Origin: Bispira polyomma
Taxonomy: Eukaryota
Reading direction: 5' to 3'
Length of the DNA stretch: 64,000 nucleotides
Assembly (NCBI GenBank): GCA_965649765.1
Contig: OZ287752.1
Location: forward strand, 86,676,001-86,740,000
The position numbers and the translations under genes were made by a program. A model generated the notes under the pieces. The model was given only the letters and a program-made list of their open reading frames with translations, did no database searches and was not told the DNA's origin. Position 1 is the first letter of the stretch. The number at the start of each line of letters is the position of its first letter. This document shows, piece after piece, positions 8,419-48,555 of the stretch.

Positions 8419-8594
8419 TAACATGACAATGGTGTGTTCACATCTTGCCCACAAATCAAGATTAACCAAATTGTCCCATATGATGCCTTCACATTAGTAA
8501 GTAATATACCTTAGATAAATATAATACCTTTCTCAATTGTTTTAAGGAGAAATTCAAACTAACTTTTATAAATGTTTCCTTAGAATCACCAACT

Positions 8595-15410: not shown

Positions 15411-15423
15411 GTAAGTGTCTCAG

Positions 15424-16231
15424 AGTGGTATTTCAGTAGTACCTGTTTTATGGAGGTGGTATTTCAGTGGTACTCGTTTCATGGATGTAGTATTTCAGTA
15501 GTACCTGTTTCATCAAGGTAGTATTTCAGTAGTACCTGTCTCATAGAAGTGGTATTTCAGTAGTAGCTGTTTCATGGAGGTGGTATTTCAGTAGTACCTG
15601 TCTCATACAGGTGGTATTTCAGTAGTACCTGTCTCATAGAAGTGGTATTTCAGTAGTAGTATTTCAGTAGTGGTATTTTAGTACCTATTTTAGTAGCTGT
15701 TTCATGGAGGTAGTATTTCAGTAGTAGCTGTTTCATGGAGGTGGTATTTCAGTAATACCTGTTTTATAGAGGTGGTATTTCAGTAGTACCTGTGTCATGT
15801 ATGTGATATTTTAGTAGTACCTGTTTATGTACGTATTTTAGTACCTATTTTAGTACCTGTTTTATGGAGGTATTTTAGTAGTACCTGTTTCTTAAAGGTG
15901 GTATCTTGGTAGTACCTGTTTCATGGAGGTAGTATTTTAGTAGTACCTGTTTCATGGAGGTAGTATTTCAGTAGTATCTGTTTCATGGAGGTGGTATTTT
16001 AGTAGTACCTGTTTCATAAATGTGGTATCTTAGTAGTACCTGTTTCATGTAGGTGGTATTTTAGTAGTACCTGTTTCATGGAGGTGGTATTTCAGTAGTA
16101 CCTGTTTCATGGAGGTAGTATTTCAGTAGTACCTGTTTCATGGAGGCGGTATTTTAGTAGTTCCTGTTTCATGGAGGTGGTATTTCAGTAGTACCTGTTT
16201 CATGTAGGTGGTATTTCAGTAGTACCTGTTT
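15424..16231. repeat. 31-bp minisatellite GTGGTATTTCAGTAGTACCTGTTTCATGGAG, roughly 25 units
   Basis: Directly visible tandem array with unit variants. Confidence 0.95.
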
Positions 16232-16239
16232 CTGTCTTT

Positions 16240-16390
16240 GTTTTATAATAATAATTGAAGCATTCATAGAGCGACAAATTGATGAGAACATCCTGTAAAG
16301 CGCTGATATCCAAAAGGGGATGGTCCAGGGGCGAGCAAAAGGTTGGTCCCAAAAAAGCATCCACCAGGAAAGAGACTAAGGAGAGGTAGA
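16240..16390 (-). mobile_element. 3' end fragment of an L2-like LINE with (ATT)n tail
   Basis: Homologous to 8595-8770. Confidence 0.5.
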
Positions 16391-23880: not shown

Positions 23881-24384
23881 GTAAGGGGTGAGATCAAATA
23901 TGATGGTTTGATTCAAAGCAAAAAGTATATGAGTTTTGACCTTCACAATGTTTGGTCAATGTGTTTGAGGGCAAGACATTTTAACCTTTAAAGTCACTGG
24001 TGGGATAGTTTGATTGATCTATGTACAACTTTAAAGAAAAGTTTAAGATTAAAATTGTAAATGTTCTACAAACATAAAATTTATAAGATAAAGTATTTTG
24101 TTGAATAACATATAATAAGATTTTCCCTAAAAATTGTAGGACGGTTAGGATAATATTATCCATCTTCACACTTTTTAAATTTTTGGGGGGTCAGTGACTC
24201 CACATTGGAAAAGGCACTGTGGCCCCCCTATAAGAAGTGGTGTGATTAGTTATATATATACATATTTTGTGATTGACTAAACAAGTTATTGATACAATCT
24301 GTCAGTGTTTAGTACAGATGAGCAATAAGGTAAAACTAAACAAACTATCGCACTACACATCATGTACAAACTTTAATGATACTA

Positions 24385-24572
24385 CAGTTCCCTATTTGTA
24401 GTCAAAGTAAGTTGTTGATATCCAAGTGTCTATGGTTAGTGATATAAGACAATGAAAAGATACTGTTTTGTAGTTTATTTTCCTGTACAAGTTAGTATGG
24501 CTATGTACAATATACAGTAATTAGTATAAAATATATTTAAAATTGAAGAGGTAGCTGAAATTTGAAATGAAC
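24385..24572 (-). repeat. Split direct repeat B2 (3' terminus of YR-2)
   Basis: Near-identical to 25642-25829. Confidence 0.95.
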
Positions 24573-25000
24573 CCTTCAACAGAATAAAAGATATACAATA
24601 ATACTAGTATAACAAAGCACGTAAATAAAAGTACAAAATAACTAGTGTAAATATAAAGCAAACAACCCATATAGTTGAAGCTTATGAGACTAGCCCGTTA
24701 CATTAAAACCATTAAAATTATCAGGGGTACAACTACGTCTACACACACCAGATATAAGTGTTCCTGGGACTAGCCCACCACATTGATTCAGTATATTACA
24801 TTTACTCTATTATTTCTTTAATTCAATACCACTGACATAATGTCACAGCAGTGAGCCCACGACAGCAGACAAATACACATGCAAGTTTCGCACTATGGTA
24901 GACATTGTCAACCGATTTAGTAGGCCTGTGGCCCATCCGACATTTATAACTAAGTTAATAAATAATCAATGTACTGTTTACTGATTTGTGCAGACGTGCA

Positions 25001-25145
25001 GTGGAACCCGAGGCCTAAGGTACCTATTCACCTAGCAGAGAAGAATTCAGTCCCTGTCCCCTTATTCAACCCTGGCCACTACAGTTGGGCTCAGAGGAGG
25101 GAACAAGGACTGAAAACGTCTCCACACAGCCGAGAGTTCAACCAC
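25001..25145 (-). ncRNA. Putative structured RNA motif, copy 1
   Basis: 17-bp helix UUCAGUCCUUGUUCCCU/AGGGGACAGGGACUGAA whose G-U pairs work only on the minus strand, plus flanking helices; covaries with copy 2. Confidence 0.65.
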
Positions 25146-25215
25146 CCGTTTGCCATTCTCTGAAATTTTTATTTACCTAATTTGTACTTAATCTTACTGG
25201 ACATGCAGGGAGTCC

Positions 25216-25355
25216 GTGGAGCCCGAGGCCTGTGGTACCTAATCACCTAGCAAAGAAAGAATGGTCAGATCGCCCTTACTCTACCCTGGCCACTATAGTT
25301 GGGCTCAGAGGAGAGCGAAAAGACTACCCGATCTTCACCCGGCCATGAGTTCAGT
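25216..25355 (-). ncRNA. Putative structured RNA motif, copy 2
   Basis: Same loop sequences as copy 1, with different but still pairing stems (GUGAAGA/UCUUUGC, UCGCUCU/AGGGCGA). Confidence 0.6.
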
Positions 25356-25420
25356 GTTCATCCTGGATTACCTAGTAAAATGTAACTTAAGTGGTGGAAT
25401 CTTAGGGGTTGGTGGTGGGA

Positions 25421-25641
25421 ATAAAATTTAGTTTTTTGTTGTTGACCCTTTGAATGCTTGGTCCAATATGGCACCCAAAAGTGGGGACATAATTTCTAAT
25501 GAAAGGTGGTCTAATTAGTGATTGGCTAATTGGGAAAAGTGTGGGAAGTATGTACTTGTTGACAAGAATAGTTTTTTAAAGGGGGTATTTACTAGGATGG
25601 GGAACTGATTTAGCAGGCCCCTAAAGTTGTCGTGCTCGACA
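25421..25641 (-). repeat. Split direct repeat A2
   Basis: Near-identical to 30960-31180. Confidence 0.95.
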
Positions 25642-25829
25642 CAGTTCCCTATGTGTAGTCAAAGTAAGTTGTTGATATCCAAGTGTCTATGGTTAGTGAT
25701 ATAAGACAATGAAAATATACTGTTTTGGGGTTTATTTTCCTGTACAAGTTAGTATGGCTATGTACAATATACAGTAATTAGTAAAAAATATATTTAAAAT
25801 TGAAGAGGTAGCTAAAATTTGAAATGAAC
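25642..25829 (-). repeat. Split direct repeat B1
   Basis: Near-identical to 24385-24572; starts just after the YR stop. Confidence 0.95.
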
Positions 25830-25840
25830 TCAAACCCAAG

Positions 25841-26817
25841 TTAGAAAGAGGAGGGGACAATGTTTGCAAAAGTGTGAGGAATCACAGAGGCAGCTTGTGA
25901 TGTAGATTGAAGATAAGTCCAAACTGCTGAGCTGTGCCAAAGCCCATGTGCCATAATATTTTGTAAAAAAATATTGTTATTGAATGCTAATGTTGCGCCT
26001 GACCTGCGAAAAGTGTGGAAACCATGGGTAGAATGGTCAATGCCAATGTGTTGAAGAATGATTTTTAAAGCTGCTCTAATGTGTGAGTCCACCACAGGAT
26101 AATAAGGGGGTGATGCTGAGGTAAACAAGGGGGTGGAAGGTGCCAGTCCCCTGTTACTGATCAGCTGAGTAAGTGCTGTTACTGGGCAAAGTAAGGGAAC
26201 CTTAATTGAGGGCAACTGAACCACATGTGAGTTGGATCTGTCCTGCATGTTCTTTGCCCACTTTATTATGAGGTGTACCCCAGGAGGGCCAAATACTACG
26301 TCATGAATAAGTAAATTTCTAGTGGGGTCAAATTTCCTTCTTGAGTGAGGGGCGATGTTGGACATACGCAAAAATCCATAAAATGCCACAGGAAAAATGG
26401 CCCTAAATAAATGGGGGTCTTGTAGGATTTCGCAAGCCTGTGATATTTTTAACACTTGTTTGATGTCAAATACCCCTTTTGAAGCTGGTCTAAAAGGGGA
26501 GTTGTGAACCAGACTATGTGTAAACAAAGAGATGGCATTGTGTTGAAACACTGCTGGGTTAATCTGATATTTAGCCGACATGAATTTTAATGCAGCGAGG
26601 TAGTTGTTAACTACTTTTGGAGACAAATTATTTTGAGTGAGATATTCTAGAAAGGCCAAGACTGAATGTACAGTTATGTCCTGAATGTGTGCATACTGTA
26701 GGAAAGAGAGGAAAGTCCTAAATTGGCTGGTGTAGGCTGATGTGGTTGCTGGCCTCAGTGCTGTGTTGATCTTGTTGATCGCAGCAGTGGTCAGTGAATC
26801 TGTAGCTGTTGTAGCAC
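25841..26817 (-). CDS. Tyrosine recombinase of YR-2, intact; no ATG at its 5' end, predicted exon 2 of a Gag-YR fusion
   Basis: Catalytic set R (GFLRMSN), K (WAKNMQ), HxxR (HTFRR), H (HGLW), Y (VWTY). The frame is open upstream of the ORF-track start as GATTATDSLTTAAINKINTALRPATTSAYTSQFRTFLSF. Confidence 0.93.
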
Positions 26818-26823
26818 CTACAA

Positions 26824-29627
26824 TTAAATATTATAATCTAGGTTAAAGTGTGTTATGGGAATCTCCTTGCATGTACAATGACTTAGTTTTACTAACATTT
26901 CCTGTTTAGGGGGATTATCTGAATATATGCACGAAAGTGCGTCTGCCCATATATTCGTCTGCCCAGTTATGTCGTGTAAAGAAGATATCAGCCAAATATT
27001 ACAGATGCATGCTGCCAAAAAGGGGTCCCTAGTTTTGCCGGTCTGGACGACCAAGACTACGGCCATATTATCACAGTGAAAGGTAACTTTCTGGTGAGCC
27101 CAGTCCTCACCCCAGATCCTTAATGCAATAACTATGTTAATCATTTCTAGTTATGTTATATGTAATTTTTGCCATATGCCACCTAGTCATGTTAAGCAGG
27201 CATCCAGGTGTAACTCAGTAGCATCACTGATGATCGAGGGGACAATATAAGCGACTCCATTATATTTAAATAGGAAGGCAACAAACCAATCTAAATCTTT
27301 CTTGATGTTATCTGTAAGTTTAAATCTCTTTAGCGTTAGGAGAAGCCCTAAATACCGAAAGTAACCTATTGATGAAGCATCTGGCCGGTTTCACACATTT
27401 GTGAATATATAGCAATTTCCCAAGTATGGACTGAAATTTTGAACGTGATAACCATGATTTTGTACGTGCTTCCACACATGCGTCATAAATTTCTTTAATT
27501 TTTTCGGGGGTTATACTAAAAGTGCCCTCGTCAATGTTAATGTCGATACCTAAGAATGTAATCTGTGTAGAGGGGGGTGCAATTTTTTCTGGGTTCATTG
27601 GGAGACCAAGGTTTTTAAGTAATGTACAAAAGATGTCAAAACCTCGTTGCGCATCCAATTTTTGACAGACACAAATATAATCGTCAATGTAGCATGAAAG
27701 GTCAAATCCTTGCTTTCTCATGTGGTCTGCGATAATGTCCGAGCAGTGCTGAAATACGGCACTGCCGTGCGCCCACCCAAATGCGACTGCAGCATCAACG
27801 TAGTACTTATTGTCGTGACAAATACCAAGTTTAAGAGCATCGACAAGGTCTACTCTCAAATTACGAAAAGCTCTAGCTATATCGACCTTGAACATTACTG
27901 GGTCAGAAAATTTTAAAATGTTAGAAGTGACAGTATCTGTGTTAGGAAACTTAAGGAGAAATTTTGTGTTATCATAGGTATCTCTGCTAACGTGATCATT
28001 TACTGAATCACCCAATGGGTGAGAGAGATTTAGTATAACTCTACGTTTGTCACGGTCTTTCGGTCTGGTTAATAGGGGGGAACAGTGGTAATGTGGATCC
28101 GGAAGTATGTCCACTGGACCTAACATGGCCCCTTTAGACTTCTCTTTGTCTAGATATTGAACAATCGCATTTGAGTATTCAAGAGCAGAGTGATGATTAG
28201 TCACCTGTTTAACCTGTAATTGGTCTGCGTTCTCTAGGGACAATGGAAAACCGAATTTAAGGTATTGGATTACGATTTTGTCTGGGTGAACCTGCGTTAT
28301 GTTTTCCCATGCCGTGATGTTTAACTGGGATTTGACAGGGATTTGGAAGTCCTGTGTCCCTTATGATATTTGCAGCGAGTGTAATGTCCTTCATATTTTC
28401 TAGCAGAACCGAATCTCTGTCTGGCCCTACAAATTGAAATGGAGTGCTAGTAAGCTTAATGAAGCCTGTGTTCTTATCAGGGTTATCAATGTCCTTAGAA
28501 GGTAAAGTTTTTGAAGAAGAATTAACTTCCAAGTCCGGGCCCACCAGCCCATCCAGGTCGTTAATGAGCGGAGCAGAAGTACAACTCACCTTGTGCATTT
28601 TATCCCATTTATTTATGGGTTTCTGAACTTTATTACTATTAACATGTATATCATCATTTTCAATTATCTTATCTATGATATCACACATAAATTGAGAATA
28701 AGCACAACCAAGTGTTTTATGACATGCCAGGTCTTTGTTGTAGTTGTCATGAGCATTTGCTGCCCCTATTATTTCTTTGTCATTAAACTTATAGACCCTG
28801 TTCCATTTATGACCATTCATAATAATTCCTTGTCTTTTTTTAGTCACCCTCAGTTGGAAACCTGGTAACTCGTCTAGACCTGTATAAATAAAATTACTGT
28901 CTGCATTGTCCCACTCCCTAACACAAAAACCTGACATGTCACGACAATTTGGAAATTCTAAGTATACCAATGCTTTAGCCCTGGTGTTAATATCATGATA
29001 ATCATAGAATTCATAGTTCATTATCGAAACTATGCATTTAGTCTTAATTGTGCCTCCATACACGAACACATACTATTTGTCACCTTGATTGATATCTGGT
29101 CTCTGAACATAACAATACCTGTGTCTATAATTAGGCCCATCTATATCAATTGAAAAATTATTGTTACCATTATTATGGTGACCCAGTTGGGTAATCTCAG
29201 ATTTTTGAGGTCTTTCCAAAATATGATCTTTAGTAAGCCCATTCTCATGGTGGCCATTGTGTCTAATATTTTGATTCCCCATCTCATAGAAATTTCCCTC
29301 TCTTGGGCAATTATCTGCATGATGTTTCATCATGTCTGATTCCCCACTACCAGACCTGTCACAGCCTTGTTCAGAGACACCAGAATCAAGAGTTTTGACA
29401 TTACCAATCGAATGTATATTTTTAGCTTTTACATTATAGTCTTTCACACTATGGCACCCCTGAGGGTCCCTATGTGATTTTTTCAAATTATTTGACCATT
29501 GACTTTCCACATTACAATTATCATTATACACAACATTATTATAACTAGTGACTGTGACTTTATCTCTAATACCCTTAAATGCTCTACTCTCTCTGTTAGT
29601 TCGTTCACTTGGTCGTCGACCAACTCC
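26824..29627 (-). pseudogene. pol of YR-2: long N-terminal extension, RT (27320-28243), RNase H (26824 to about 27250); disrupted
   Basis: CSPLLTRPK, FKVDIARAFRNL and CYIDDY (RT); FHCDNMAVV and NIWADALS (RNase H). In-frame TAG at 29073 and frame breaks or stops near 28250-28330, 27320 and 27150. Confidence 0.92.
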
Positions 29628-30887
29628 CTAGCTTGGTGTCTGCTTGTCTGAAGATCTTTTTGCAACATTCGCCTTGACACATTTAAATTCTGGGTGTGTG
29701 TTCTCCCTATTGGCTGAGCGAAAACAGTGATTACATATATGACGATACTGTCCGTGGTCGGATTCGTGGTTGCAAGTGCCATTGTTGTAAAATTTACATA
29801 CATTTTTGGAGTTCTGTGCTGCCTGTGGGGCTTGTGCGACATGGCTATTAATCATAGCCAACTGTGAGGTGTTCATGCGATTTAGAGCCCACTGGGTGGA
29901 GTTCGACCAATCCAACCGACTCTCCTCGACTTCTTGCATATACAATGCCCAACCTGACCTAACAGCAGGCCAGGGAAGAGAAGCTGAGTCTCTGAGCGTA
30001 TAAATCATTTGATACATCATATTCCTCATGGTAGTGACGTCTGAGACCTGCACTATATTAAACAATTGCCCTGCAGCCCACTGTGACAGTGTGAGGTCAT
30101 CGAAACTGGGTCATTTACGAACAGTGCCTCCGATCCAACCCTCGTTCGACCACCGGGATTTAGGGTCAGATGTAATAACATCTGTGGTATTGAAGCGGTC
30201 GGATTTTTGCCTAAGGGAAGTCTTACCTTGCGACAAGTTCGTCCTGAGCTGCACATCATAAGCCACCAGCCATTGGTTCACTGCCGCGTTGACTTCAGGT
30301 GAGGTTTTTAGGACATCCAGTCGAGGGATGATGCCATCTCGCTGATAGTCATGATGTTGTGCCGCCAGGGGGGCCCTATGTGGCAAAGCCTGAGTGGCGT
30401 GAATGTCTGCGTGCATCTGGGTAGTGTGGTGGTTACTCGGATGATAACCGTGTTGTTGTGCCACCAGTGGGGCCGTGGGTGGCATAGCCTGAGTTGCGTG
30501 GACGTCTGCGTGCGTCTGGGCGGTGTATTGGTTACCCGGTTGAATCAAGGGAAATCTGTCTGTAATGGGTGGCCGTAATTCTAACATGGTATTGTTAATG
30601 CCCTGCTGTGTAGGGGAGGTTAATGGGGTCGAGTTATATGCCTCTTTCAGTTCAACTTTGTTAAGCCTCCTATTGATTTCTGAATTTGCTGATTCAAGTC
30701 GTTTAAGTATAGACATAACATCTGAAATACCATTCTCACCCTTCGCTGACTCATCCGTCGCTGTGTCTGTGTTCCTTGAGATCCTAAGTTTCCTCACAAC
30801 TGGGTCTGTGCCTTTCTTTGTCCCACGTTTTGAAGTCATTTTTTTCTTAGATAATGGAACACTACCTGGTGCTTTCGTCTTCCCCAT
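29628..30887 (-). CDS. gag-like ORF1 of YR-2 (one in-frame TGA at 30111-30113, probably CGA>TGA)
   Basis: ORFs 30111..30887 and 29628..30065 are in the same frame (RK*PSFDDLTLSQWAAGQ). Coiled coil, a 33-aa tandem duplication (about 30345-30530) and C-terminal CKFYNNGTC...HICNHC...H...C zinc-finger-like motif. Confidence 0.85.
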
Positions 30888-30959
30888 AGTGTATATATAT
30901 TAAAAACAGATAAAATCACTTGTTGTAAGACACATAAAACCTTCAATATATTCCAGTAA

Positions 30960-31180
30960 ATAAAATTTCGTTTTTTGTTGTTGACCCTTTGAATGCTTGG
31001 TCCAATATGGCACCCAAAAGTGGGGACATAATTTCTAATGAAAGGTGGTCTAATTAGTGATTGGCCAATTGGCAAAAGTGTGGGAAGTATATACATGGGA
31101 ACAAGAATAGTTTTTTAAAAGGGGTATTTACTAGGATGGGGAACTGATTCAACAGGCCCCTAAAGTTGTCGTGCTCGACA
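30960..31180 (-). repeat. Split direct repeat A1 (5' terminus of YR-2)
   Basis: Near-identical to 25421-25641. Confidence 0.95.
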
Positions 31181-32130: not shown

Positions 32131-32141
32131 GATAATAATAT

Positions 32142-33901
32142 TGTAACGGACGAGCAGTCTACTTATTTAAATGGTAGGAGCTAGTATATTTCTGCTGTCA
32201 CACGTTGTAGATATGACTATCTAAGTTCAGTTATCTCTTATGAAGGGATGTAGTCTCTCTCTAATCTCAATATAGACATATAGTGGTGCAGTCTATATAC
32301 TTCTGAAGTGATGTAGTGTCTCTCTAATCTCTATATAGACCTATTGTGGGGCAGTCTATATACTTATGAAGTGATGTAGTCTCTCTCTAATCTCTATATA
32401 GACCTATTGTGGTGCAATCTATATACTTATGAAGTAATGTTAATGTGTGTATTGTCTATTATTTTCTTTTCTTAAGATCTTAATTAGTTTTAGATAGGTG
32501 TTTAAATAAGGTTGCCCTTAAGTGACTTATTCAAATAAAAAAAAACAGTCAATTCAACAATGACCTTAAATAGTCCAGATTTATTTATATACAATAAGAT
32601 ATTTGGTAATATTTATAACTATAATGACTACACAGCTAGTTGTAGTTAAATTTCCCACTAACCAGTTATTTAAATATTAGTCAGTAATTTGGGTATAATT
32701 TTATATACATGAAGTAGATATTTACAGAATAAATAAATGTACTGACATCTATGAGTAAGACAGTCAATTTTGTACATCAGTTGTACTGTCGCATCTGTTT
32801 ATAACAGTTAAAAAAAATATCACACAAGTGATTCACTGTATTTTACTATAAAATACTACCAGAAGATAAATTTGTAGTAGGATGTCCAAATTTGGGAAAT
32901 GTTTACATGACCTTCACCATAAATTACCGCCAAATTAATATCTGTCAAAATGGGCCTAAAATAATATATGGAGTTATCAAAGTGGTCCCAAATATTAATA
33001 AACTATAAATAAAATTACTAACTGTCAATATCTGAAAGCTGATCTAATAACTTCTAAATGCTGAAGAGTTGTAAGAATAACTGTTCACACAGGGAGTTTC
33101 CAGACTGAAACCGCCAAATTCACAGAGCAGAGAGGTTATATAATGTATGCTGTAACCAAGGAGATCTGACATGCTCTGTGCTCAGTCACAGAGAACTGTA
33201 TTAATCAATACATTTCTAAGGCTAAACTAAATTTCTAGAACCAAGTATAAATGCCTAAGTAATCATTCTAATGATTAAATATACTAAATAACAATATTAT
33301 ATAACATTTATAAAGCAGTTTACCCTGTTTAATAGCCCTAAACTGTTAATATAAACTTCTACTAAACTTTGTTTTAGTCTCGTACTTCACTTCCTGTCTG
33401 GGAAGATATCAACAAGTAACTGTCAAACATGGCTGACAGCAGCCAAATTAATTCCATAAACTGGCTCAGAAACAACATAGAATCAATATTTATACAACAA
33501 AACCCCTAGAAACCACTTTACACAAGGTCAGTTATAGTTTATACTAGCTAGATTACATAATGTAAGTCCACAGTGAAAACAATATATTTCTCGTAACTTT
33601 AGTCTATTTACCGGTCCAAATTCTGGCTCACAGATCAACTGATAAGATAACAAGGCTATATATTCTGGCTTGTGCCTGAGTTCTAGCTCACCCAAAATCC
33701 CCCTAGCCCACTATTTACTGATCACAGATAAGTCCATTCTCAAATATGTGGTACTGTATAGTTAATTAATTATGCATAGAAAGTGAGCTTAGTTTGCCTA
33801 TAAAATATGCACTGAGTGGTAAATATATCACACAGCTTGATATCAGACAATCAATATATTCCACTCTAGCTGTATAAGACTTAATATCCAGATCCGCTAC
33901 A
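32142..33901 (-). repeat. 3' LTR
   Basis: TGTAACGGAC...TCCGCTACA; near-identical to 40480-42240 apart from scattered substitutions and a few short indels. Confidence 0.97.
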
Positions 33902-33915
33902 TTTCCCCCACCCTA
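33902..33915 (-). promoter_or_regulatory. Polypurine tract
   Basis: Minus strand AGGGTGGGGGAAA directly precedes the 3' LTR. Confidence 0.85.
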
Positions 33916-34263: not shown

Positions 34264-35388
34264 TCAGAAACCCCAGTCGCTGTCAGAGTCGTCAGAGTCG
34301 TCCAATTGTTCCTCATTTTTCCAACACTTCATGCAGTACACTGACTCAGAGATGATCTTTTTCCGGCAAGTCCCTTCCTTTAGAACTACAGTCTGGAATT
34401 CCACTACAGGTAATCCAATACCGTGAGGGCAGCACTCATCTCTTCCACTTTTCTTGGGAGCTGTCGTTTCTTTCGATGAAGTAGACGTGCTTTTAGATAG
34501 TTTACTGGCTCCCAGGTACTTAGGTGATCTAGGGAAGGCTTCGACAGAGCTCATTCCTGTTTGTGTCTCGGTTGTTACACTTCCTGGAATGTAGGCGACC
34601 TCAGGATCAATGTTTGTTGACAGGATAGTCTTTACCATCTTTGGGGTACTGTTAGCCAGGATCTTGTTGGTGGAGGTGCCAATCACTTGGCTCCTTCTCT
34701 GACTAATGCTTCGTTGTTGGTTCTGGTGTGGACTGCTGTCACATTTCTTCACACCAGAGCCTGGAGTTACACTTGCTGCTTCCAAGTATCGTGGTGAGGT
34801 AACTTTGGCTAAGTCTTGGCTTAAGATGGCGGCATCCGACCTTCCTGTAATGACTGCAGGACGACAAGCCGCTAGCTCTGGCAGATCAGCAGTGTTTGGT
34901 AAGGGGGAAGCCGCTAGGCTGTCCGAAATCGTCACTGAGCTCTCTACAGCTGTAACTGGCGTGATGGATGTTATTCGTGCTGCGAACTGCAGGAAATCCT
35001 CCTCCTTCCCGACATACTGGTCCAGGTTGGCCTTTACTGCTGGACTTAGGCCTAAAGAATCATTTAAGTCAAAAGTCTCTACTTGCTGGATGGTGTCAGG
35101 CTGGGATACGGTTGTTCTGATGGGGGTAGTTGATGCAGGAAGATTCACTTCTACCTCTCTGATCATATTTGGATTGGCGCGAACTATTTCTTTCATTGTG
35201 GGGTGATCTAGTCTAAGGTGACCCCTCATGTCGCATAAAATTTTCCTTTGTTTTGGGCAGAACGGGCATTGATACGTTACATCCTTCCTATCATGGACAT
35301 TTTTGAAGTGACGTTCCCAGTTACTCTTCCTACCAAAAGTTAAATTGCATTGGAAGCAATTGAAGGATCGAGGAGCCATCTGTAACAT
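34264..35388 (-). CDS. Extra ORF3 of the Gypsy element: two N-terminal C2H2 zinc fingers, S/T-rich linker, C-terminal Cys/His motif and acidic tail (374 aa)
   Basis: FNCFQCNLTFGRKSNWERHFKNVH and YQCPFCPKQRKILCDMRGHLRLDH; CCPHG...CMKC; DDSDDSDSDWGF. Uninterrupted, located between integrase and the PPT. Confidence 0.88.
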   Translation of the reverse strand: MLQMAPRSFNCFQCNLTFGRKSNWERHFKNVHDRKDVTYQCPFCPKQRKILCDMRGHLRLDHPTMKEIVRANPNMIREVEVNLPASTTPIRTTVSQPDTIQQVETFDLNDSLGLSPAVKANLDQYVGKEEDFLQFAARITSITPVTAVESSVTISDSLAASPLPNTADLPELAACRPAVITGRSDAAILSQDLAKVTSPRYLEAASVTPGSGVKKCDSSPHQNQQRSISQRRSQVIGTSTNKILANSTPKMVKTILSTNIDPEVAYIPGSVTTETQTGMSSVEAFPRSPKYLGASKLSKSTSTSSKETTAPKKSGRDECCPHGIGLPVVEFQTVVLKEGTCRKKIISESVYCMKCWKNEEQLDDSDDSDSDWGF

Positions 35389-35468
35389 GCAAACAACGAG
35401 TCATGTAATACAAGTAAAGACAGTGGTATTAATCTCATAAACACTTGCCACTATATCTTGACTAACCC

Positions 35469-38400
35469 TTAACTGGGATCATAATTGTACTGCAGTCGAT
35501 CTGGGGGTCTGTGATCTCGGGTTGATCTGCGAGGTCTTGGTGGGGAGTTGGTGTCTGTCTGCAAGACAACACTTATCTGGTCTTGAATAAAGCTACAAGG
35601 GTCAACGTCTTCACATATCTTAACTAGATCTGGAGAGTTAAGAGCTAGGGCCACATGGTTAGAATTATCAGTCTGCTCTTCATCTGGAGGATCATTGGAA
35701 GTTCCAGGACAATTAAGTCCACTTCCTGTATCACCACTGGAAGTTCCAGGACAATTAAGTCCACTTCCTGTATTACTGCCAGAAGTTCCAGGATAATTAA
35801 GTCCACTTCCACCCTGAGTTTCCTGGAGGGCACCTTCTCCAGTTCTCAAATCCGAGGATATTTCTTCAACTTCTGGGATAACTTCATGTGGTTCTTCAAT
35901 AACCATCTCATCTTCGTCTGATGAATCAGTGAAAGACGTGTGCTGACATACTCCTTGTTTCCTAACAGCTTGATACAACCAGACTAAATCACCAGTATTA
36001 AATGACTTCCCATAAGCTCTTCTGTCATAATACCGTTTTTGTCGTTCACTTGCTTTCTGTAGTTTTACCCTCACATATCCGTGGGCTAACTCTAGTCTGT
36101 GTTGTAGAACCTGGATATATTCTTCAGCTTCAAGCTCTTGTCCTGGAGGACTGCCGAAAATTACATCGACTGGAAGAAAAATTTCACGACCTAACATCAA
36201 TAAGTTAGGGGATGCATTGGTACTCTCTTGTGCCATCGATCTGTGAGCTAGGAGTAGAAACGGTGTGTAACTGTCCCAGTCTTTCTGGTGTTCAGACACA
36301 AAAGTACTCAACATGCTTTCCAAGGTTCTGTTCATCCTCTCAACAAGCCCATCACTCTGTGGGTGAAATGGTGTTGTTCTAGTCTTGTCAATATCTAATA
36401 ACTCTTGAAATATGGCAGATTCAAATTGCCGTCCTTGATCGGTATGTATAGCGAGTGGTACTCCAAATCTACAGATGAATTCCTCTACTACCTTGCGAGC
36501 TATGGTAATTGCTTCTTGGTTGGGTATGGGATACGCTTCCACCCACTTAGTGAAGTAATCAGAGAGGACTAACAAGTATCTATTCCCTCTGTCACTTCTG
36601 GGAAGGGGGCCCATTATGTCCATAGCAATTCTTTCCATGGGCATCCCAGCTTTAATGTGTCCCATCTTTCCACGATTTTTCTTGCTGGGTCTTTTCTTGG
36701 AAGCACACAACTCACAGGTACTGCACCATTTTTGGACATCTCTTCTGTGACCATACCAGTAAAATCTAGCTCTTACACTGGCTAGTGTTTTATGTTCCCC
36801 AAGGTGTCCACCAGTGGGATGGTCATGGATCATTTTCAGTACCTCTTGACGTCTGCACTCAGGAACCACCAGCTGCCATATAGATTTTCCAGTAACATCT
36901 TCATCCCACAGTTTGTAAAGGACCCCTTGCTTAATCTCTAACTGATTCCACATGCACCAGTAAGTTTTACTGGCTGCTGACAAAGATGATATTTCACTCC
37001 ATTCACACTTCCATTTCTGTACTTCACTTATTATTCTGTCTTCGCTTTGTTCGTCTGCAAGTTTACTACTACCGATACTGGCAATCCACTCAGCATCAGA
37101 CACATCATAGTTGATTCTTTTGGCACCATTCTCATGTTCAGCTTGGGCTCGAGTTAGTACTGACAGCTGTAGAGGTGTACTCTGCTTGTCTATTGCACTG
37201 ATTACATTGCCTTCGGGATAATGTATCTGCATTACTGTGTAGCCTACGGCGGATTTTGAATGGCGGATTTTGAAATCGTACATTGATAAAGTACGAATGA
37301 TAAAATGGTTGCCATAGATGAAATGTCTCAAGTGTTTTACAAAATGTACCACTGCCAGAAGTTCTTTTCTGGTAACGCAATAACATTTTTCTGGTTTGGA
37401 TAAACTTCGACTGGCATAAGCAATAACCCTTTTTTTTCCCTCAATGATTTGTGATAGAACTGCTCCGATGCCGTAGTCACATGCGTCAGTGTCAAGTATG
37501 AATTGACATTCTGGTCATGTGTATGCTAACACAGGTGCTTCTGTCAGCTTCTGTTTCAATACTTTAAAGGCTTCCTCACACTTTTCAGTCCATACAAATT
37601 GCCTTCCTTTCTTTGTAAGTTCATGTAGAGGTGCAGCTACCACAGCAAAATTCTTGATAAACCTGCGGTAGTATGAACAGAGCCCCACCTCTTCTAACTT
37701 CGGTGATACTTGAAGGACGTGGCCACTTCTGAATACTCTCGATTTTTGCTGGATCAGTAGAGACCCCCTCTTCAGATACCAAGTGTCCTAAGTATGAAAC
37801 TTGTTTTTGAAAAAATACACATTTCACTGGTTTTAGCGTCATCTTTGCGTTGCGAATTCTGGCGAATACTTCCCTTAATCTTTTTATCTTCTCATCAAAA
37901 CAAGAGGCAAATATGACCATGTCATCTAAATATATCAGAAGCATTTTGTACTGAAGTCCATTGAAGATGTTTTCCATAAAACGTTCAAAAGTTGCGGGAG
38001 CATTGCATAACCCAAAAGGTAAGACTTTGAACTGATAAAGCCCTCCGTCGGGAGTGGTGAATGCTGTCTTTTCACGGTCTTTTGGCTCTACTTCGACCTG
38101 CCAATATCCGGCCTGAAAATCAACTGTTGAAAAGTATTTAGCGCCTGCTAAAAATGGAAGATCTGTCTGATAATCAGGGATAGCTTTAGCATCGCCTCTA
38201 GTCACTGAGTTGACCAATCTGTAATCTATGCAATATCTCCAAGTGTTATCTTTCTTCTTCACTAAGACCACTGGAGAAGACCAAGGACTGTCCGAAGATT
38301 CAATGATACCTGTGTCTAACATATCTTGCGTCTGTCTCCTTGCCTCTTCACGGAGATGAATTGGAATTCTTCTAGGGCGCAACTTGATAGGATGTGCATC

Positions 38401-39399
38401 ACCAGTATCATGATGTTTTACTTTGTCCATCCTTCTAAGGTCACCGGAGTCTTTGGCAAAAATATCTTGATACTGCATCAATAATTCTGACATGGTCTGC
38501 ACTTGATCTTCATTTAAATGTGTTGAACTCCTCAGAATTAGGTCTCTTAAATGTTCTGGAATATGTTGAGGATGATCCTGGCTATGTGTGTGTACTGTTC
38601 GTCTAATGGAAGCACAAGTATCTTGTCCCACATCATCCCATGAGTCTGCAGGATGACACAAGGCAACAGTGGTTCTTTCTCTCAGTTCAATATCTTCTTC
38701 AGTTGCATTCATGATTTGCATGACCACTTGACCTTTGTGTATATTCACGAGAGATCGTGCCACCAGGAGTCCATATCAGTCTGTAAATTTTTCTGTCCCT
38801 TCTAACACATTGATCTGACATTCATTCCCTCTACGATGAACTTGACCAATCACCAGTTTTTCATGTCGTGCTGGTACTGTAGTAGTGTGTTTGAGTGACA
38901 CTCTGCAACAAGAAAACTCTTCACCTTCATTACACATGTTGATATTTGTATTCTGAATTGTTAACAACTGGCTGGCTAAGTCTAACTTACAGTCATGTTC
39001 GACTAAAAAGTCCATTCCTAAGATGGCATCGTCTTTTATATCGGCTACCACAACTGTGTGACTTACTCTCAGATAACCTAATGTAATTTCACTCAATCTT
39101 TGGCCCATCACTGGCATTGGGTCACCATTAGCCTGGACAAGTTCAAAATCCACAGGTTCAAGTGCTTGTTCTGGGCAAACTAAGTTCCTCTTTGACACTA
39201 CAGTAATGCTGGCTCCCGTATCCACTAAAAATTTCATTGGTTGACCATCAATTTGTCCAATCACTACTAATCCGGATCCCTTCTTAATTGTTATGACTTG
39301 TTTTGGCCTTTCACATTGGACTGTACCTTTCCCAATAGGCACAGCCCGCCTTAGTTTGACGTATTTTGAATCTTGTGGTACTGTCGAGGTTTGTTGCAC
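35469..39399 (-). pseudogene. Gypsy pol: protease (38776-39399), RT (37621-38763), RNase H (about 37330-37680), integrase (35469 to about 37000); several disablements
   Basis: FLVDTGAS; WRYCIDYRL and IYLDDMVIF; ILDTDACDYGIGAVL; HDHPTGGH...C..C, MDIMGP, HTDQGRQFES, DGLVERMNRTL. In-frame TGA at 38776 and frameshifts near 37680 and 37200-37350. Confidence 0.95.
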
Positions 39400-40401
39400 T
39401 CAGTCTTGTAGTGTCCTTTTTCCCCGCAGTTCCAACATTCAATATCTTTTCGGTCCTGCCTACTGGTCCCTTGTCTTCTATATTCCTGTTTTGTTTGGAA
39501 TTTTTCTATGATTTCTTGTAAATGACTAATTTGCTTCTGCATCATCTGCAAACTTCCAGACTCGTTGACTGTAGTTGGTGGTGTATTTTTTTTGCTGTAG
39601 TTGTCGATTAGCCTCAGATTCTTTCATCCCTGAGCCCGCTGACGCTCAGCCTTTTTGTATGCCTCCATCTCTACTGCTGCACAAACAGCATCATCTAATG
39701 TTTTGGCTTTTACTTGATATATCCTCCATCAAAGATCATTGTCATCCAAAGCGTCAATAAATGAGTCTCGCCCGAGAATGTCCATCACATCCTGCATGGC
39801 TGTCGGGTAGGCCCTCTGAACTAAATGTCGTATTTCTTGAGCTAGTTCAGGTAGACTCTGTGATCCCTTTCTTTGAAAGTTTCTTAATTCCGCTCTGAAC
39901 AGTTCAGTCTGGATTAAGGGCGGCCACCAAATCTTGATAATTCTGTCGTGTCTGTGGAGTTAAAGTCCTCATGAGCTGACAAGCTGCTCCTCTAAGACTA
40001 ACACTGAGATACTGGGCTTTTTGTCTGTCATTCCACTCGTTGAGATCCGCACAGATTTCAAAATGGCTAATAAATTCTGACCAGGATCCACATCCATTGA
40101 AATGATCTGGCATAACTTGTGGTCGCTTATTACTGGCCATTACCCCACCTGGGTTTCTGTTCTCCCTCTCCTGGTATCTCACCGGTCCTGGGGCACGACT
40201 TCTAAACATATCTGGCCCCACGTCGGGTTGTGGAATCTCATTATCACCTTGTTCGTACATCAGACATTCTGCAGCCGCTTGAAGTCTTTCCATTTGGCCA
40301 TCATCCCTGGTATCAATATCAATAAGTGATGATTCCTTAGGACGAACATCCCCAGATCCATGCTCTTCTGAGCTATCAATACAGTTAGGTGTGTGTGACA
40401 T
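39351..40401 (-). pseudogene. Gypsy gag with zinc knuckle (frameshifted)
   Basis: VMPDHFNGCGSWSEFISHFEICADLNEW capsid-like region; CWNCGEKGHYKTEC is a CX2CX4HX4C knuckle. Confidence 0.9.
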
Positions 40402-40459
40402 TTCTATGATTACTTCAAGGCAGAATTCGTACCACTGGATCTCTTATCAAAAATAAAAG

Positions 40460-40477
40460 ATCCCACTTCTGACACCA
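40460..40477 (-). promoter_or_regulatory. Primer-binding site complementary to the 3' end of tRNA-Leu
   Basis: TGGTGTCAGAAGTGGGAT, 2 nt inside the 5' LTR; complement of ATCCCACTTCTGACACCA, the 3' end of metazoan tRNA-Leu(CAG/CAA). Confidence 0.9.
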
Positions 40478-40479
40478 GT

Positions 40480-42240
40480 TGTAACGGACGAGCAGTCTAC
40501 TTATTTAAATGGTAGGAGCTAGTATAGTTCTGCTGTCACACGTTGTAGATATGACTATCTAAGTTAAGTTATCTCTTATGAAGGGATGTGGTCTCTCTCT
40601 AATCTCAATATAGACATATAGTGGTGCAGTCTATATACTTCTAAAGTGATGTAGTGTCTCTCTAATCTCTATATAGACCTATTGTGGGGTAGTCTATATA
40701 CTTATGAAGTGATGTAGTCTCTCTCTAATCTCTATATAGACCTATTGTGGTGCAGTCTCTATACTTATGAAGTGATGTTAATGTGTGTGTATTGTCTATT
40801 ATTTTCTTTCCTTAAGAACTTAATTAGTTTTAGATAGGTGTTTAAATATGGTTGCCCTTAAGTGACTTATTCAAATAAAAAAAAACCAGTCAATTCAACA
40901 ATGACCTTAAGTAGTCCAGATTTATTTATATACAATAAGATATTTGGTAATATTTATAACTATAATGACTACACAGCTAGTTGTAGTTAAATTTCCCACT
41001 AACCAGTTATTTAAATATTAGTCAGTAATTTGGGTATAATTTTATATACATGAAGTAGATATTTACAGAATAAATAAATGTACTGACATCTATGAGTAAG
41101 ACAGTCAATTTTGTACATCAGTTGTACTGTCGCATCTGTTTATAACAGTTAAAAAAAAGTATCACACAAGTGATTCACTGTATAAAATACTACCAGAAGA
41201 TAAATTTGTAGTAGGATGTCCAAATTTGGGGAATGTTTACATGACCTTCACCATAAATTACCGCCAAATTAATATCTGTCAAAATGGGCCTAAAATAATA
41301 TATGGAGTTATCAAAGTGGTCCCAAATATTAATAAACTATAAATAAAATTACTAACTGTCAATATCTGAAAGCTGATCTAATAACTTCTAAATGCTGAAG
41401 AGTTGTAAGAATAACTGTTCACACAGGGAGTTTCCAGACTGAAACCGCCAAATTCACAGAGCAGAGAGGTTATATAATGTATGCTGTAACCAAGGAGATC
41501 TGACATGCTCTGTGCTCAGTCACGGAGAATTGTACTAATCAATACATTTCTAAGGCTAAACTAAATTTCTAGAACCAAGTATAAATGCCTAAGTAATCAT
41601 TCTAATGATTAAATATACTAAATAACAATATTATATAACATTTATAAAGCAGTTTACCCTGTTTAATAGCCCTAAATTGTTAATATAAACTTCTACTAAA
41701 CTTTGTTTTAGTCTCGTACTTCACTTCCTGTCTGGGAAGATATCAACAAGTAACTGTCAAACATGGCTGACAGCAGCCAAATTAATTCCATAAACTGGCT
41801 CAGAAACAACATAGAATCAATATTTATACAACAAAACCCCTAGAAACCACTTTACACAAGGTCAGTTATAGTTTATACTAGCTAGATTACATAATGTAAG
41901 TCCACAGTGAAAACAATATATTTCTCGTAACTTTAGTCTATTTACCGGTCCAAATTCTGGCTCACAGATCAACTGATAAGATAACAAGGCTATATATTCT
42001 GGCTTGTGCCTGAGTTCTAGCTCACCCAAAATCACCCTAGCCCACTATTTACTGATCACAGATAAGATAAGTCCATTATCAAATATGTGGTACTGTATAG
42101 TTAATTAATTACGCATAGAAAGTGAGCTTAGTTTGCCTATAAAATATGCACTGAGTGGTAAATATATCACACAGCTTGATATCAGACAATCAATATATTC
42201 CACTCTAGCTGTATAAGACTTATTATCCAGATCCGCTACA
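40480..42240 (-). repeat. 5' LTR
   Basis: Near-identical to 32142-33901. Confidence 0.97.
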
Positions 42241-42479
42241 ATATATAGGTACATTTTTTGATAATAATATATAGGTACAGCATTTTAAACAAACTGAATT
42301 TGTTTTGGAGCTTTATACTGGAGCTACTGGTATCGTGAGACAGGGAGGATAAGTCTTTAGAGATAAATGTCTATTTACAAAGGTAAATTACTTCTTGATG
42401 TGAGGGCATCATATGGGAAAATGGAAAAAAGTGGTTAAATTTGATTCGTTATCCAGATGTGAACATACCATTGCCTTAT

Positions 42480-44400
42480 AGTATTATTATGACGAATTTT
42501 TAACACGCTTTATTGATGCTAGGCATTTTCTAAAGCGCAACGGCAGAATCATGGGTCCAATCATTAAGTCCATGGACATTGTAAAGTCGTAAGGAAGGAA
42601 GTTGGAGCGTGCACGAGGAAAGCTAAGGTGGGTAGGTAAGATTAAAAAGATAGATTTTAAGCCTTTTCCTGAAACCGATAAGTGTGTCATCTGATCTGAG
42701 GTCAACTGGGAGACTGTTCCATAACAGTGGAGCTGCAGTGGAGAATGTTCTAGATCCCGCCTTCCTGATTGGTCTGACTGAAGAGACAGAGAGTCTGTTG
42801 CCTCTCTTGCGGTTACTGAAGGAGAGAAGGGCGGCAAGGTAGGATATTGTTGAGTCACTACGGCCTTAAAAGTAGTAACATGGATCTTGAACAAAATATG
42901 AGAATGAATGGGCAGCCAGCGTAATTTTTTGAGATAAGGAGTGACGTCTGTGCAACAACCCAGGCGAAAAATGACCCTACATAGGAAGTTTTGGATGGAC
43001 TGGAGCTTTTTAATGTTGACTTGAGTATCATCTGCATACATGTGGTGTTTTATATTATGTTTATTGATGACAGTGCTGAGAGGATGTGTATAAAGGGTGA
43101 AGAGTAGAGGGCCAAGGACGGATCCCTGGGAAAATCCATATGGTAGCTTAATGGAAGATGATAGGTAATCATCTAATTTAATTCTTTGTGCCCTAAAAGT
43201 AAGGTAGGATCTGATCCATTTAAGGACACTGCCATTTATACCGAACCACTGCTTGAGAGTGTCACAGAGCATGACATGATCAATAGTGTCGAATGCAGCT
43301 GACAGATCCAGAAGTACTATATTGATTGGTAATCTGATCCATTTAAGGACACTGCCATTTATACCAAACCACTGCTTAAGAGTGTCACAGAGCAGGATAT
43401 GATAAATCTTGTCTAATGCAGCTGAGAGATCCAGAAGGGTGAGGGCCACTGTCTCGTTGCGGTCCAGTGCAAGATTGATATCATTGCTGATGTCAAAAGG
43501 GCACTTTCTGTAGAGTGGAATTTTCTGTAAGCAGACTGGTGGCGATTTTCAATGTTTTGTCCATTAAGGTGGTCAGAAATTTGTTGAGCTGCAGGTTTTT
43601 CAAAGACTTTTGAGACGAAGCTGACGTTTGACACCAGTCTGTAGTTTTTGAGCTGATTTTTATCAAGCCCTTGTCTTTATCAAGGGAGTTACACTTTCCG
43701 TCTTGAAACAGGTGGGAAAAACAGCATCCCGAAGAGAAATATTTATTTGTGTTTGTTATGGGTGTGACTAGAATGTCAAGACACTGATTTAGAATAACTG
43801 CTGGGATAGGATTTAATTCACAAGATTTAATAGTAGAAGATATTATGAGTTTCAAAACTTCCTGCTCTGACAGTGTACTGAAATGGAACAGGTTAAAAAC
43901 CATATATCCTGGGGTTGGAGGACTAAAGTGATATATTGTTGGAAAGCCGTTGCGAATATTGCTGATTTTTTCTATGAAAAAGTTTCCAGATTTTTCGGCT
44001 AAGAGAGTTAGCCAATGGTTTATGGGGAGAACTTTCTCCGATGTTTGATGTAGAATTTTGTTTATGGAGGCCTATAATCTTTTGGGATTATCCTGATTTT
44101 CACTGATGATAGAGTAGTAATGTTGCTTTTTGGCATCAGATATTAGCCTGTTGTAATTATTTGTTATTTGACTTCTGTCAAAGGAGGATTTTGTACGTCG
44201 CCATTGATGCTCAAGTTGGCGTTTGCATCTTTTGGCCTCTGTAATGGCGCCCTTGGTCCATTCATGGGGGTTAGTTGGGGGAAGGTTTTTAAATACCCAA
44301 GCCGCATGTTTATCAAAATAGTAGAAAGGCAATGATTGTATTGTAAGCTAAGGCTATCAGCATTTTTGCGTGGATGGTTGATGATATTTGTTTCCATTTA
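42480..44400 (-). mobile_element. Decayed L2-like LINE with an internal tandem duplication of about 120 bp
   Basis: QSAYRKFHSTESALL; LLDLSAAFDTIDH present twice (duplication about 43210-43440); QGSVLGPLLF; YADDTQ; VTPYLKKLRWLPI; (ATA)n tail at about 42485. Confidence 0.9.
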
Positions 44401-46439: not shown

Positions 46440-48555
46440 TTAAAATTGGACGGTAAACACAGTAATAACAATAGGCGTGGGGAATATTAGTTTTATTCTA
46501 AGTTGGTTAAACTACATCATATACACACTGAGAGACTAAGGTCACCAGGGATTTAAGGAGATCAGAAAGTGACCGCTTAAACTGAGTTTAAGTTGTGATA
46601 TTAAGGTTAATTGAGTTTTACAATTAGAAATTAAGGTCGTTTTACCTTAAGATGCCGGATTGGATTACTTTAAGGCCATTTTAGCTTAAGATGGTTGTTT
46701 GAGTTAGGGTAACCTTAATGGCTTTAAGTTTTAACTTAAGTCTAGTTTGAAGATATAGGTGACCTTAGTCTGAGATACACACGTAACAAGTTTAAGGTTT
46801 AAAATGAATTAGAAAAAACACCCAAATTAGTGAGTAGGGTTGGAAAGTAGGTTTTGAAAAGCTATGGCCACTTGGTCGGAAGCTTTATGATCTTTTGTAA
46901 TATATTTCCATATGCATTCTGAGGTCCATGTGCCATGGCTTTAAATTTCCTGTAATGGGACGTGGTTATTAAAGGCCAGTGTGGCCCCTGAAAGCCTGAA
47001 ATCGTGAAATGTTATGGGAAAATATGTCGTTTTCAATCTGACTAGTATTTGCTTCAAATTATGTCTTATTTTTGAATCCGTCAGAGGGTGACTTGTTACG
47101 ACCTGGTGACAGGGCTAGGACATTTCTAATTGCTGCCACAGGGCAGAGTACTGAATTCATGATACTTGGAACCTTAATGATTCTTATTGAGTTTCTATTC
47201 TGGATGGTTATGGACCATTTCATTATTACTTGCAATCCAGGGGGAGCAAAGAGCACATCCGCCCTGGCAAGCTGTTCTAATGGATTAAACATACTGAGTG
47301 TATGAGGGACTAAGTTTGATATTCTTAAGAAGGAGAAAAAGGCTAACAGGTAAGCAGCCTTGAAAATTTGCCCCATGAACATTGTATCACAGATCTTCAC
47401 TATTTCTGTAAGCAAGGCAATATCAATAACCTTGTTAATTCTGGCTCTGAAGGGTTTTTGCAAGATTTGTGCCTTCTGAAAATACTTTATATAAGGTTCT
47501 GATTTTAAATTTCCTGCCATGTTAATTCTCTGAAGGTCCTTTAGTCTGGTGTCCACTCCCTCTGGAGCTGGTTCAGCTGCCTCAACGTCTGGAGAGAGGG
47601 AACCATGAGGTCATCCAAATCCGTGGGCCAACGGTTCTTCTGCCTGCCAAATGCCTGAGACTCCTGTGGCTGCTGCATCGCGTGCTGCCTGCCAAATGCC
47701 TGTGAATCCTGGGTTTGCTGCACCACCTGCTGCCTGCCAAATGCCTGAGCCACTCCTCCCACCTGTGGCTGTACCTGTGTGCTACTGACATAATGATCTA
47801 AATTTGTAGGCACACGAGCCACTTTCTGAATGAGGGAATTAACACACTGTCTGTCTGTTTCTACCCGTTTCTCAACTTTTGACATTCTGCTTCCGAGGTC
47901 TTTAAGTTATTGTAATATGCGCAAATTCACCTCCGCCGATGACATGGCGGTGTTATCATTATTGTCCTCACTCTCACTTTCTACATCCTGCCAATGTTTA
48001 CCTGGTGCCATCTCACTGGCACTGTTTATCACAGTTTTTAATTTAGTTTCTTTAAGTCGATACACTGAAATATATAATATAAACACTGGGCTTTGATATT
48101 TGCGGATATAAGGCTATAGATGTATAATTAATTTGTATAATGACTAGAATGAAATATAATGGTTACGTCCCCCAAATTTTTGCTCCCAACATCAAAGCCA
48201 GAGCAATATTCGCATATATCAAAGCATAGGTTGTCCGTCACACTCCAATATGATCCCTGATCCACTGTAAGCACGTCCTATGATTGCAGACTTGTAGAAT
48301 AACACACATATGACAGACATTAACAAAAGTAGAATTTTAAAAACAAATTTAAGATATCTTAAAATGGCGTGTTGCCTAGTTGACTTCAATTATAAAAGTG
48401 AATCCCTCAGGCTATTTGGTGGGAATTGGCTGTGTAATTGAGTTAATGAGAGCCAATGGCAATTGGGGTCATGCTGACCAGAATAGTTTTTAAAAATCCC
48501 TTCTGGCACTGACCCTACTAGACCCTTCGGGCTACCTTGCATACCTACCGGTCTA
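46440..48555 (-). mobile_element. Internally deleted YR retrotransposon (YR-3): gag 5' part fused to YR 3' part, no RT/RNase H; inserted into a SINE
   Basis: gag-like 47500-48050 (coiled coil, Q-rich AFGRQ repeats, VPSLQTLR). YR 46827-47500 (FSFLRISNLVP, FHDFRLSGAT, HGTW, IWKY). SINE halves at 48555-48650 and 46348-46440. Confidence 0.85.

Follow-up and report, generated by a model that had tools for sequence, protein, structure and literature searches.

Non-env ORFs at the 3′ end of LTR retrotransposons are as such already known, from CERV and from the ORF3s of bdelloid rotifers. CERV of C. elegans Cer1 sits at a position comparable with that of the gene reported here (ORF3), is reported to lack obvious homologues beyond Caenorhabditis and to have H, M, and G domains and a possible C4 finger, and acts on RNA export (PMC10309623); ORF3, compared by description only, instead has tandem C2H2 fingers and counterparts in many lineages. 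LTR retrotransposons of bdelloid rotifers carry non-env, family-specific sense ORF3s past pol, typically expressed from spliced messages; the types described are env-like, GDSL, DEDDy, coiled-coil, and TM, and the term "zinc finger" does not occur in the main text (PMC5408684). Other reported cases are sORF2, which sits past pol in some moth elements (PMC11952523), and plant elements with additional ORFs (as cited in PMC8220671). The env genes of errantiviruses and metazoan Ty3/gypsy elements share position and likely spliced expression with ORF3, which differs from them in having neither signal peptide nor TM segment; "zinc finger" and "C2H2" are absent from the main text of the metazoan env survey (PMC13524379). 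Term searches within a paper on zinc-finger genes and transposons gave no Gypsy-borne C2H2 ORF (bioRxiv 10.1101/2022.11.29.518450). The C2H2 type of third ORF is widespread in animal Gypsy elements and apparently undescribed so far: for a clade-wide C2H2 third ORF in Gypsy, no description was found in the literature, of which Repbase reports, subscription papers, and supplements may hold one.

Two further proteins resemble ORF3 in proposed working mode or in build. Tas belongs to the Retroviridae, has a 3′ position and an acidic activation domain, and is, to our knowledge, not a C2H2 protein; ASCIZ has N-terminal C2H2 fingers. Foamy-virus Tas/Bel1 is described as a DNA-binding protein that is encoded by a retroelement and regulates the LTR of that element, which is the working mode that we propose for ORF3 (PMC517496, PMC4929722). 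ASCIZ/ATMIN is a transcription factor that has, like ORF3, a disordered region with LC8 (TQT) motifs (PMC5963919); the likeness is one of analogy only, ASCIZ being a host gene with many TQT sites, whereas ORF3 lies in a transposon, has a single TQT, and possesses a zinc hairpin in addition.

The Ty3/gypsy element and its third gene

Coordinates refer to the window, the whole 64,000-nt stretch of Bispira polyomma DNA that was analysed. ORF3 lies within a complete minus-strand Ty3/gypsy element that extends from 42240 to 32142 (Table 1). Both LTRs are bounded by TG...CA and are 97.9% identical (1732 of 1770 aligned columns); together with the target-site duplication, primer-binding site (presumably matching tRNA-Leu), and polypurine tract, these are the characters of a Ty3/gypsy LTR retrotransposon. 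According to Pfam, the pol domains follow the gypsy order of protease, RT, RNase H, and integrase; the GPY/F module is missing here, though present in most related integrases. Integrase matches at 47–57% come from mussel, sea cucumber, fish, beetle, moth, and spider. Such relatives, with a GC content of about 36%, suggest an animal host, probably a marine invertebrate. The element is young but broken, gag and pol being interrupted at about 7–9 places.

Table 1 Features of the Ty3/gypsy element and of ORF3, in window coordinates
Feature	Position	Strand	Basis
5′ LTR, about 1.76 kb, TG...CA	40480..42240	-	LTR alignment
Primer-binding site	40460..40477	-	sequence
gag with CCHC knuckle; one frameshift and two stops	39354..40443	-	sequence
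pol (PR-RT-RNaseH-IN); two stops and three frame changes	35469..39399	-	Pfam, sequence
Splice-acceptor-like tract; AG directly ahead of ATG at 35379	35380..35400	-	sequence; enrichment across relatives
ORF3, zinc-finger accessory gene; 374 aa if begun at Met1, the likely start being Met4 (35379), which gives 371 aa	34264..35388	-	ORF call, homologues
C2H2 finger 1, recognition helix RKSNWER (R-1, N3, R6)	35293..35358	-	
C2H2 finger 2, then conserved helix-strand cap to about residue 80	35203..35268	-	
Conserved central block, residues 104–165, two predicted helices	34894..35079	-	58–65% identity to P0002–P0004; model
ETQTG, TQT motif in disordered region, candidate LC8-binding site	34555..34569	-	
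C-terminal C-x-H...CxxC β-hairpin, probably one zinc site	34324..34431	-	
Acidic tail ending DSDWGF	34267..34320	-	
Polypurine tract (PPT), about 350 nt past ORF3 stop	33902..33914	-	sequence
3′ LTR; near its 3′ end three 63-nt tandem copies	32142..33901	-	LTR alignment
Target-site duplication (TSD) ATAT, 4 bp	left copy 32138..32141; right copy 42241-42244		sequence

Several other repeats lie in the window. A tyrosine-recombinase (YR) retrotransposon with RT and YR occupies 24384-31180, about 1 kb from the Gypsy 3′ LTR, and has split direct repeats (25420-25641 = 30959-31180; 24384-24572 = 25641-25829); a second YR remnant is found at 47059-47906. Broken non-LTR reverse-transcriptase remnants are located at 42487-44071 and 17212-19002, minisatellite arrays at 7907-8442 (12 nt unit) and 15317-16317 (31 nt unit). 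Three 42-nt tandem copies in the integrase tail (35684-35809) are present and expanded in the sister integrase P0154.

The 374-aa sense ORF that had been proposed between integrase and the PPT is there and intact, from the ATG at 35388 to the stop at 34264; of the span first given for it, 34264..35395, the lower boundary stands, but 35395 falls in the acceptor tract. The ORF begins about 80 nt past the pol stop and lies in sense orientation ahead of the PPT and 3′ LTR. Two C2H2 fingers, an S/T/P-rich linker, a CxxC motif, and an acidic tail, all named in the original prediction, are present in the sequence. The fingers (C11–H32, C41–H62) have the pattern Cx2Cx12Hx4H, kept in homologues, and are joined by DRKDVT, not by the TGEKP of Krüppel-type arrays; in this family the helix of finger 2, ILCDMRG, is without a basic residue at -1. 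Pfam gives five C2H2-type models with E 0.002–0.026, all under the curated cut-offs. Residues 66–315 are rich in S/T/P (14/11/8%) and are followed by C320-x-H322...C352xxC355 and the tail DDSDDSDSDWGF. In 6/6 family members checked the last 15 residues have a net charge of -3 to -9, and in 5/6 a basic patch precedes the C-terminal domain. The highest 19-residue hydropathy of ORF3 is 0.96, hence no membrane segment; with neither a signal peptide nor a TM anchor, the gene is not env, as had been argued. A 167-aa frame on the plus strand overlaps ORF3 at 34703-35206.

An AlphaFold2 model built on a 17-row alignment predicts a ββα finger pair (pLDDT 86–92 over the first 80 residues and the fingers), two medium-confidence helices near 116–139, a disordered middle, and, with confidence, a hairpin and helix at about 328–363 that would join the C-x-H and CxxC ends. 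The C-terminal 62 residues modelled alone reached a pLDDT of 61, with no informative fold match (best Z 2.9). Fold searches match the finger pair only, and weakly, to DNA-bound pairs (CTCF, Z 5.1, rmsd 2.1 Å over 59 residues; tramtrack, E 0.046); Foldseek returned no match at E≤0.001 for the ORF3 model, and a search of the ESM Atlas with ORF3 gave generic C2H2 or unnamed clusters only, with low recognition.

Homologues of ORF3 and C2H2 genes in related elements

A word-indexed protein search gave three ORF3 homologues among 3359 candidates, and phmmer 383 matches at E≤0.001, of which 150 were listed. Assigned to the ORF3 family were 15 of the listed matches and P0002, on the basis of a match outside the bare finger pattern or of near-identical finger helices. 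These at least 16 homologues have 31–50% identity to ORF3; the blocks are kept and the linker varies. The remaining listed matches are generic finger arrays, and P0091 was discarded as a generic finger. Identity with P0002–P0004 is 72–73% in the fingers, 67–73% over residues 4–80, 58–65% over residues 104–165, and 20–30% in the linker; with P0002/P0004 it is 65–70% around the TQT motif and 57–61% in the C-terminal domain. P0002 alone among the family homologues covers ORF3 over its full length, and several stop early or lose frame, like decayed transposon copies. No member of the family was found in viral contigs, metagenome contigs, genome contigs, or five MAGs.

The closest integrase, P0154 (85%), shares the GSGLNCPGTS tail repeat with this element. 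It lies on a contig of the same size as that of the ORF3 homologue P0003 (1,260,813 nt each), and this equality of size is the indirect basis for linkage of ORF3 and integrase in a second lineage. In the sister pair, ORF3 is 53% identical vs 85% for integrase, which indicates that ORF3 evolves much faster. Logan contigs (three public sets from two samples of one study) cover ORF3 and gag-pol to similar depth (summed depth in X1 104–160 for ORF3 vs 66–159 for gag-pol), with 7–9 loose ends at the LTR edge and several different LTR flanks; a diverged copy spanning 34384-35063 (680 nt of ORF3) has 84 differences (12%) and a net length change of 3 nt.

Related elements were chosen by integrase similarity alone: 143 loci, comprising 80 of 547 confirmed metagenome stretches, 62 GTDB-genome loci, and one viral contig. 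A profile built at first from the finger pair of the ORF3 family alone, and iterated at E<0.01, was run against all 11,059 stop-to-stop ORFs of at least 40 aa on either strand of these loci. It matched 28 ORFs, 27 of them sense and 74–1893 nt downstream of integrase and one antisense (L093). The sense zone 0–2 kb past integrase makes up 8.9% of the sequence searched; a nominal P would overstate the significance of this positional clustering because the matches are related. Dropping five near-duplicates leaves 22 distinct elements, 21 with a separate ORF and one with an integrase fusion; two fingers are present in 20. The fusion, L024:3540-4208, has a C2H2 finger in-frame with the integrase C-terminus, and in its neighbours on the tree, L029 and L032, the fingers are encoded by an ORF of their own. 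At 85% identity and a length of at least 200 aa (L071 was dropped for its short segment), the integrases form 108 clusters; the gene is present in 21 of these, and in 16 of the 60 with at least 1 kb downstream. On a FastTree tree of 76 integrases, from which clusters lacking a match were omitted if they had <600 nt of downstream DNA, this element and P0154 group together (support 90) beside a clade of seven finger-bearing elements. Gene presence takes 7 changes on the tree vs a mean of 19 and a minimum of 14 in 500 shuffles, and elements with more similar integrases tend to have more similar fingers (Mantel rho 0.36, P 0.0015, n=20).

Among relatives, pN<pS in 11/11 ORF3 pairs, of which seven are saturated, two near-identical, and two informative; in the latter, diverged and unsaturated, dN/dS is 0.16 and 0.17. 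These values point to purifying selection on the ORF3s of relatives, and neutral evolution, named beforehand as a ground for rejecting the gene, fails on them. One-off host capture, the other such ground, fails on the family-wide presence of the gene and its same position in 22 distinct relatives, which also uphold the proposal of an element-borne, non-env accessory gene with transcription factor-like anatomy. The observation that ORF3 is intact while gag and pol are broken is correct but does not serve as evidence: at 7–9 breaks, chance intactness has P 0.13–0.21, so that at the observed break density intactness of this copy is no evidence of selection.

Of 32 ORFs run against Pfam, TatD-type and doubtful ones among them, 14 have support for C2H2-type fingers at E<0.05, and a hydrophobic segment is missing (hydropathy below 1.6) in 20 of the 21 ORF3s of relatives. 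Outside the fingers, sub-clades have in common only a long low-complexity body. Beyond the fingers, hhalign detected no homology of this ORF3 to those of other sub-clades (probability <5%); it also ruled out an apparent likeness of C-terminal hairpins between sub-clades. Since median finger identity across sub-clades is 12%, ligands excluded, and the C-termini have no detectable homology, one origin or several are both possible; the gene may have been captured repeatedly and may differ in function between sub-clades. By regular expression, a PPT-like site past ORF3 was recognised in 3 of 18 closed ORFs, convincingly in two (L048, L060); the majority of contigs stop short of this point. Terminal repeats suggest unit-length contigs for the finger loci L032, L096, and L117.

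Other domains occur in third ORFs of this set. On the unit-length contig L096, the finger-bearing ORF3 (L096:7326-9089) ends in a BTB_2 (KCTD-type) domain (E 7e-13). A Gypsy sub-clade has sense ORF3s of 500–1100 aa with a TatD DNase domain at the C-terminus (Pfam E 1e-21 to 1e-43): L079:6627-9347, L081:5650-7785, L105:2827-6129, L109:9097-11439, L112:9311-11926, L113:2164-4578, L118:7518-9032, L128:9115-11262, and L078:6372-7693 (in pieces). In several of these a degenerate finger-like Cys/His motif lies ahead of the TatD domain; no report of TatD in Gypsy elements was found in the literature searched. L088, L091, L099, and L117 have a common ORF3 C-terminal domain of no named family (GAPS...helix...hairpin...W), kept in that sub-clade only. 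Other ORFs beyond pol or just ahead of the next gag are L114:3029-3658, L115:5905-6537, L101:7304-8113, L113:5396-6259, and L013:4100-5635; by motif we take three to be SGNH-hydrolase-start-like, one helix-hairpin-helix-like, and one PHD-like. The GTDB loci L082–L141 include many prokaryotic MAG records with animal-type Gypsy elements, about half from one Sedimenticola MAG. Many are titled Sedimenticola or Ca. Thiodiazotropha MAGs and probably represent co-binned host DNA.

Start site, predicted DNA contacts, and TQT motif

The AG that had been reported directly ahead of the ATG of the second Met is found at 35381-35380|35379. Of the seven family homologues that include finger 1, six begin at the Met equivalent to Met4, the second Met, which makes 35379 the likely start; the seventh reads ...SALVLQ|M, as from a CAG|ATG acceptor. 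Acceptors were scored as pyrimidines in the 14 nt ahead of YAG, within 75 nt of the first Cys, a site being strong at 10 or more. The mean score of 22 ORFs is 8.8 vs 6.2–6.4 in pol, antisense, and shuffled controls, for which the highest means of 500 replicates are 8.4 (pol), 8.8 (antisense), and 8.2 (shuffled); 11 of the 22 ORFs score at least 10, and L015 is without a site. The acceptor of this copy, with 9/14 pyrimidines, is under the strong-site cut. Four of the 21 stand-alone ORFs (L052, L060, L092, L096) have no Met ahead of finger 1, so their start must come from an upstream exon. Taken together, the sites suggest that ORF3 is likely made from spliced RNA; eight donor-like sites are present in the LTR and gag of this element, none of them singled out as the donor.

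Helix positions -1, 3, and 6 are the usual base-contact positions of C2H2 fingers. In finger 1, R or K is found at -1 across the family and N3 and R6 are invariant; finger 2 has R or K at -1 in 15 of the 20 two-finger ORFs of the clade. This conservation at base-contact positions favours DNA binding over RNA binding. By the standard finger code, R-1/N3/R6 of finger 1 would presumably read a GAG triplet; the LTR shows no significant excess of the corresponding predicted site, C.GAG (8 vs 5.0, P 0.13). Two C2H2 fingers alone bind weakly.

[TS]QT is kept in all nine family sequences that cover it. In ORF3 the peptide SVTTETQTG (residues 270–278) is modelled at a pLDDT of about 50 or less, has neither proline nor a bulky residue immediately ahead of the TQT, fits the rules for LC8 motifs, and is a candidate LC8 site; its +2 residue is G, not the favoured P/D/E, and many TQT peptides are reported to fail to bind LC8 (PMC6607443). 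Across the clade the strict TQT is not enriched (4/22, P 0.10), and a relaxed motif, defined post hoc, is (5/22, P 0.002). No LC8 gene was found in five MAGs.

Competing explanations and significance

ORF3 is, in our assessment, almost certainly a selected, element-borne gene. Position and homology identify it as an accessory third gene of Ty3/gypsy, one of many C2H2 genes at that place in relatives. The contrary account, by which a piece of a host gene was captured once and has been carried along neutrally, is largely refuted and very improbable: the chance intactness of this copy and the generic host C2H2 arrays that match the fingers at 25–39% among the matches listed are compatible with it, and set against it are family-wide depth, block conservation, dN/dS, the 22 distinct relatives, and the lack of any host protein matching beyond the fingers among the 150 matches listed. 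As to function, we give an even chance to a DNA-binding regulator of the element's own transcription. A leader exon would be spliced to the acceptor at 35380 to yield the ORF3 mRNA; the protein would act in the nucleus, where the finger pair would bind DNA sequence-specifically, and the effect would be to raise LTR-driven transcription of the element or to protect it. The disordered linker, TQT motif, and acidic-aromatic tail would, like foamy-virus Tas, bring in host factors of transcription or chromatin, and the TQT motif might give LC8-mediated dimerisation, as in ASCIZ.

The same fingers might instead bind element RNA, in a post-transcriptional factor of Rev/CERV type that promotes export of the unspliced genome, as would be needed given a strong internal acceptor. 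Acceptor enrichment across relatives implies that a splicing/export problem exists, and C2H2 fingers can bind RNA; we nevertheless hold this unlikely, as helix positions -1, 3, and 6 hold basic, Asn, and Asp residues in keeping with the code for DNA binding, the structures matched by fold are finger pairs on DNA, and the ORF3 model contains no CERV-like M or G domain. Improbable, too, is a role in integration targeting or tethering, with the fingers reading DNA and the tail or hairpin binding integrase or chromatin so as to steer insertions: the gene travels with integrase on the tree and is fused to it in L024, but 21 of the 22 elements encode it in a separate ORF, a weak search of 8000 long candidates turned up no pol-finger fusion in the ORF3 family, and the one insertion site of this copy shows a plain AT-rich TSD. 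We judge it quite improbable that ORF3 works as a decoy or inhibitor of host silencing through protein contact (LC8, or mimicry of host zinc-finger factors) and not through LTR binding. Against such a decoy count the conserved DNA-contact residues, the presence of TQT in a minority of other ORF3s, and the fact that the PICTS transposon-silencing complex is known from flies; in its favour are the invariant TQT of the family, the rapid divergence of ORF3 relative to integrase, and the dimerisation of Drosophila PICTS by LC8 (PMC7861614).

On a broader scale, a large old branch of animal Ty3/gypsy could consist of "complex" retrotransposons, with a spliced third gene that combines a constant DNA-reading C2H2 pair with an interchangeable effector, be it a BTB domain, a TatD nuclease, or an acidic tail plus zinc hairpin; we put this forward tentatively, as a possibility well short of an even chance. 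C2H2 zinc fingers are usually cast as a host weapon against retroelements (bioRxiv 10.1101/2022.11.29.518450), and about a quarter of related Gypsy lineages (16/60 with at least 1 kb downstream) bring a C2H2 gene of their own. They explain why one class of zinc-finger gene models stands as orphans in assemblies of invertebrates and in host-contaminated MAGs, and their proteins are small, soluble, and easily tested. If they regulate the LTR as proposed, env-less retrotransposons have an overlooked Tas/Tax-like regulatory layer. If the "complex" reading is true, transposons would deploy zinc-finger transcription factors of their own against host silencing, a mirror of the host KRAB/ZNF repressors, and such elements could supply zinc-finger genes to their hosts.
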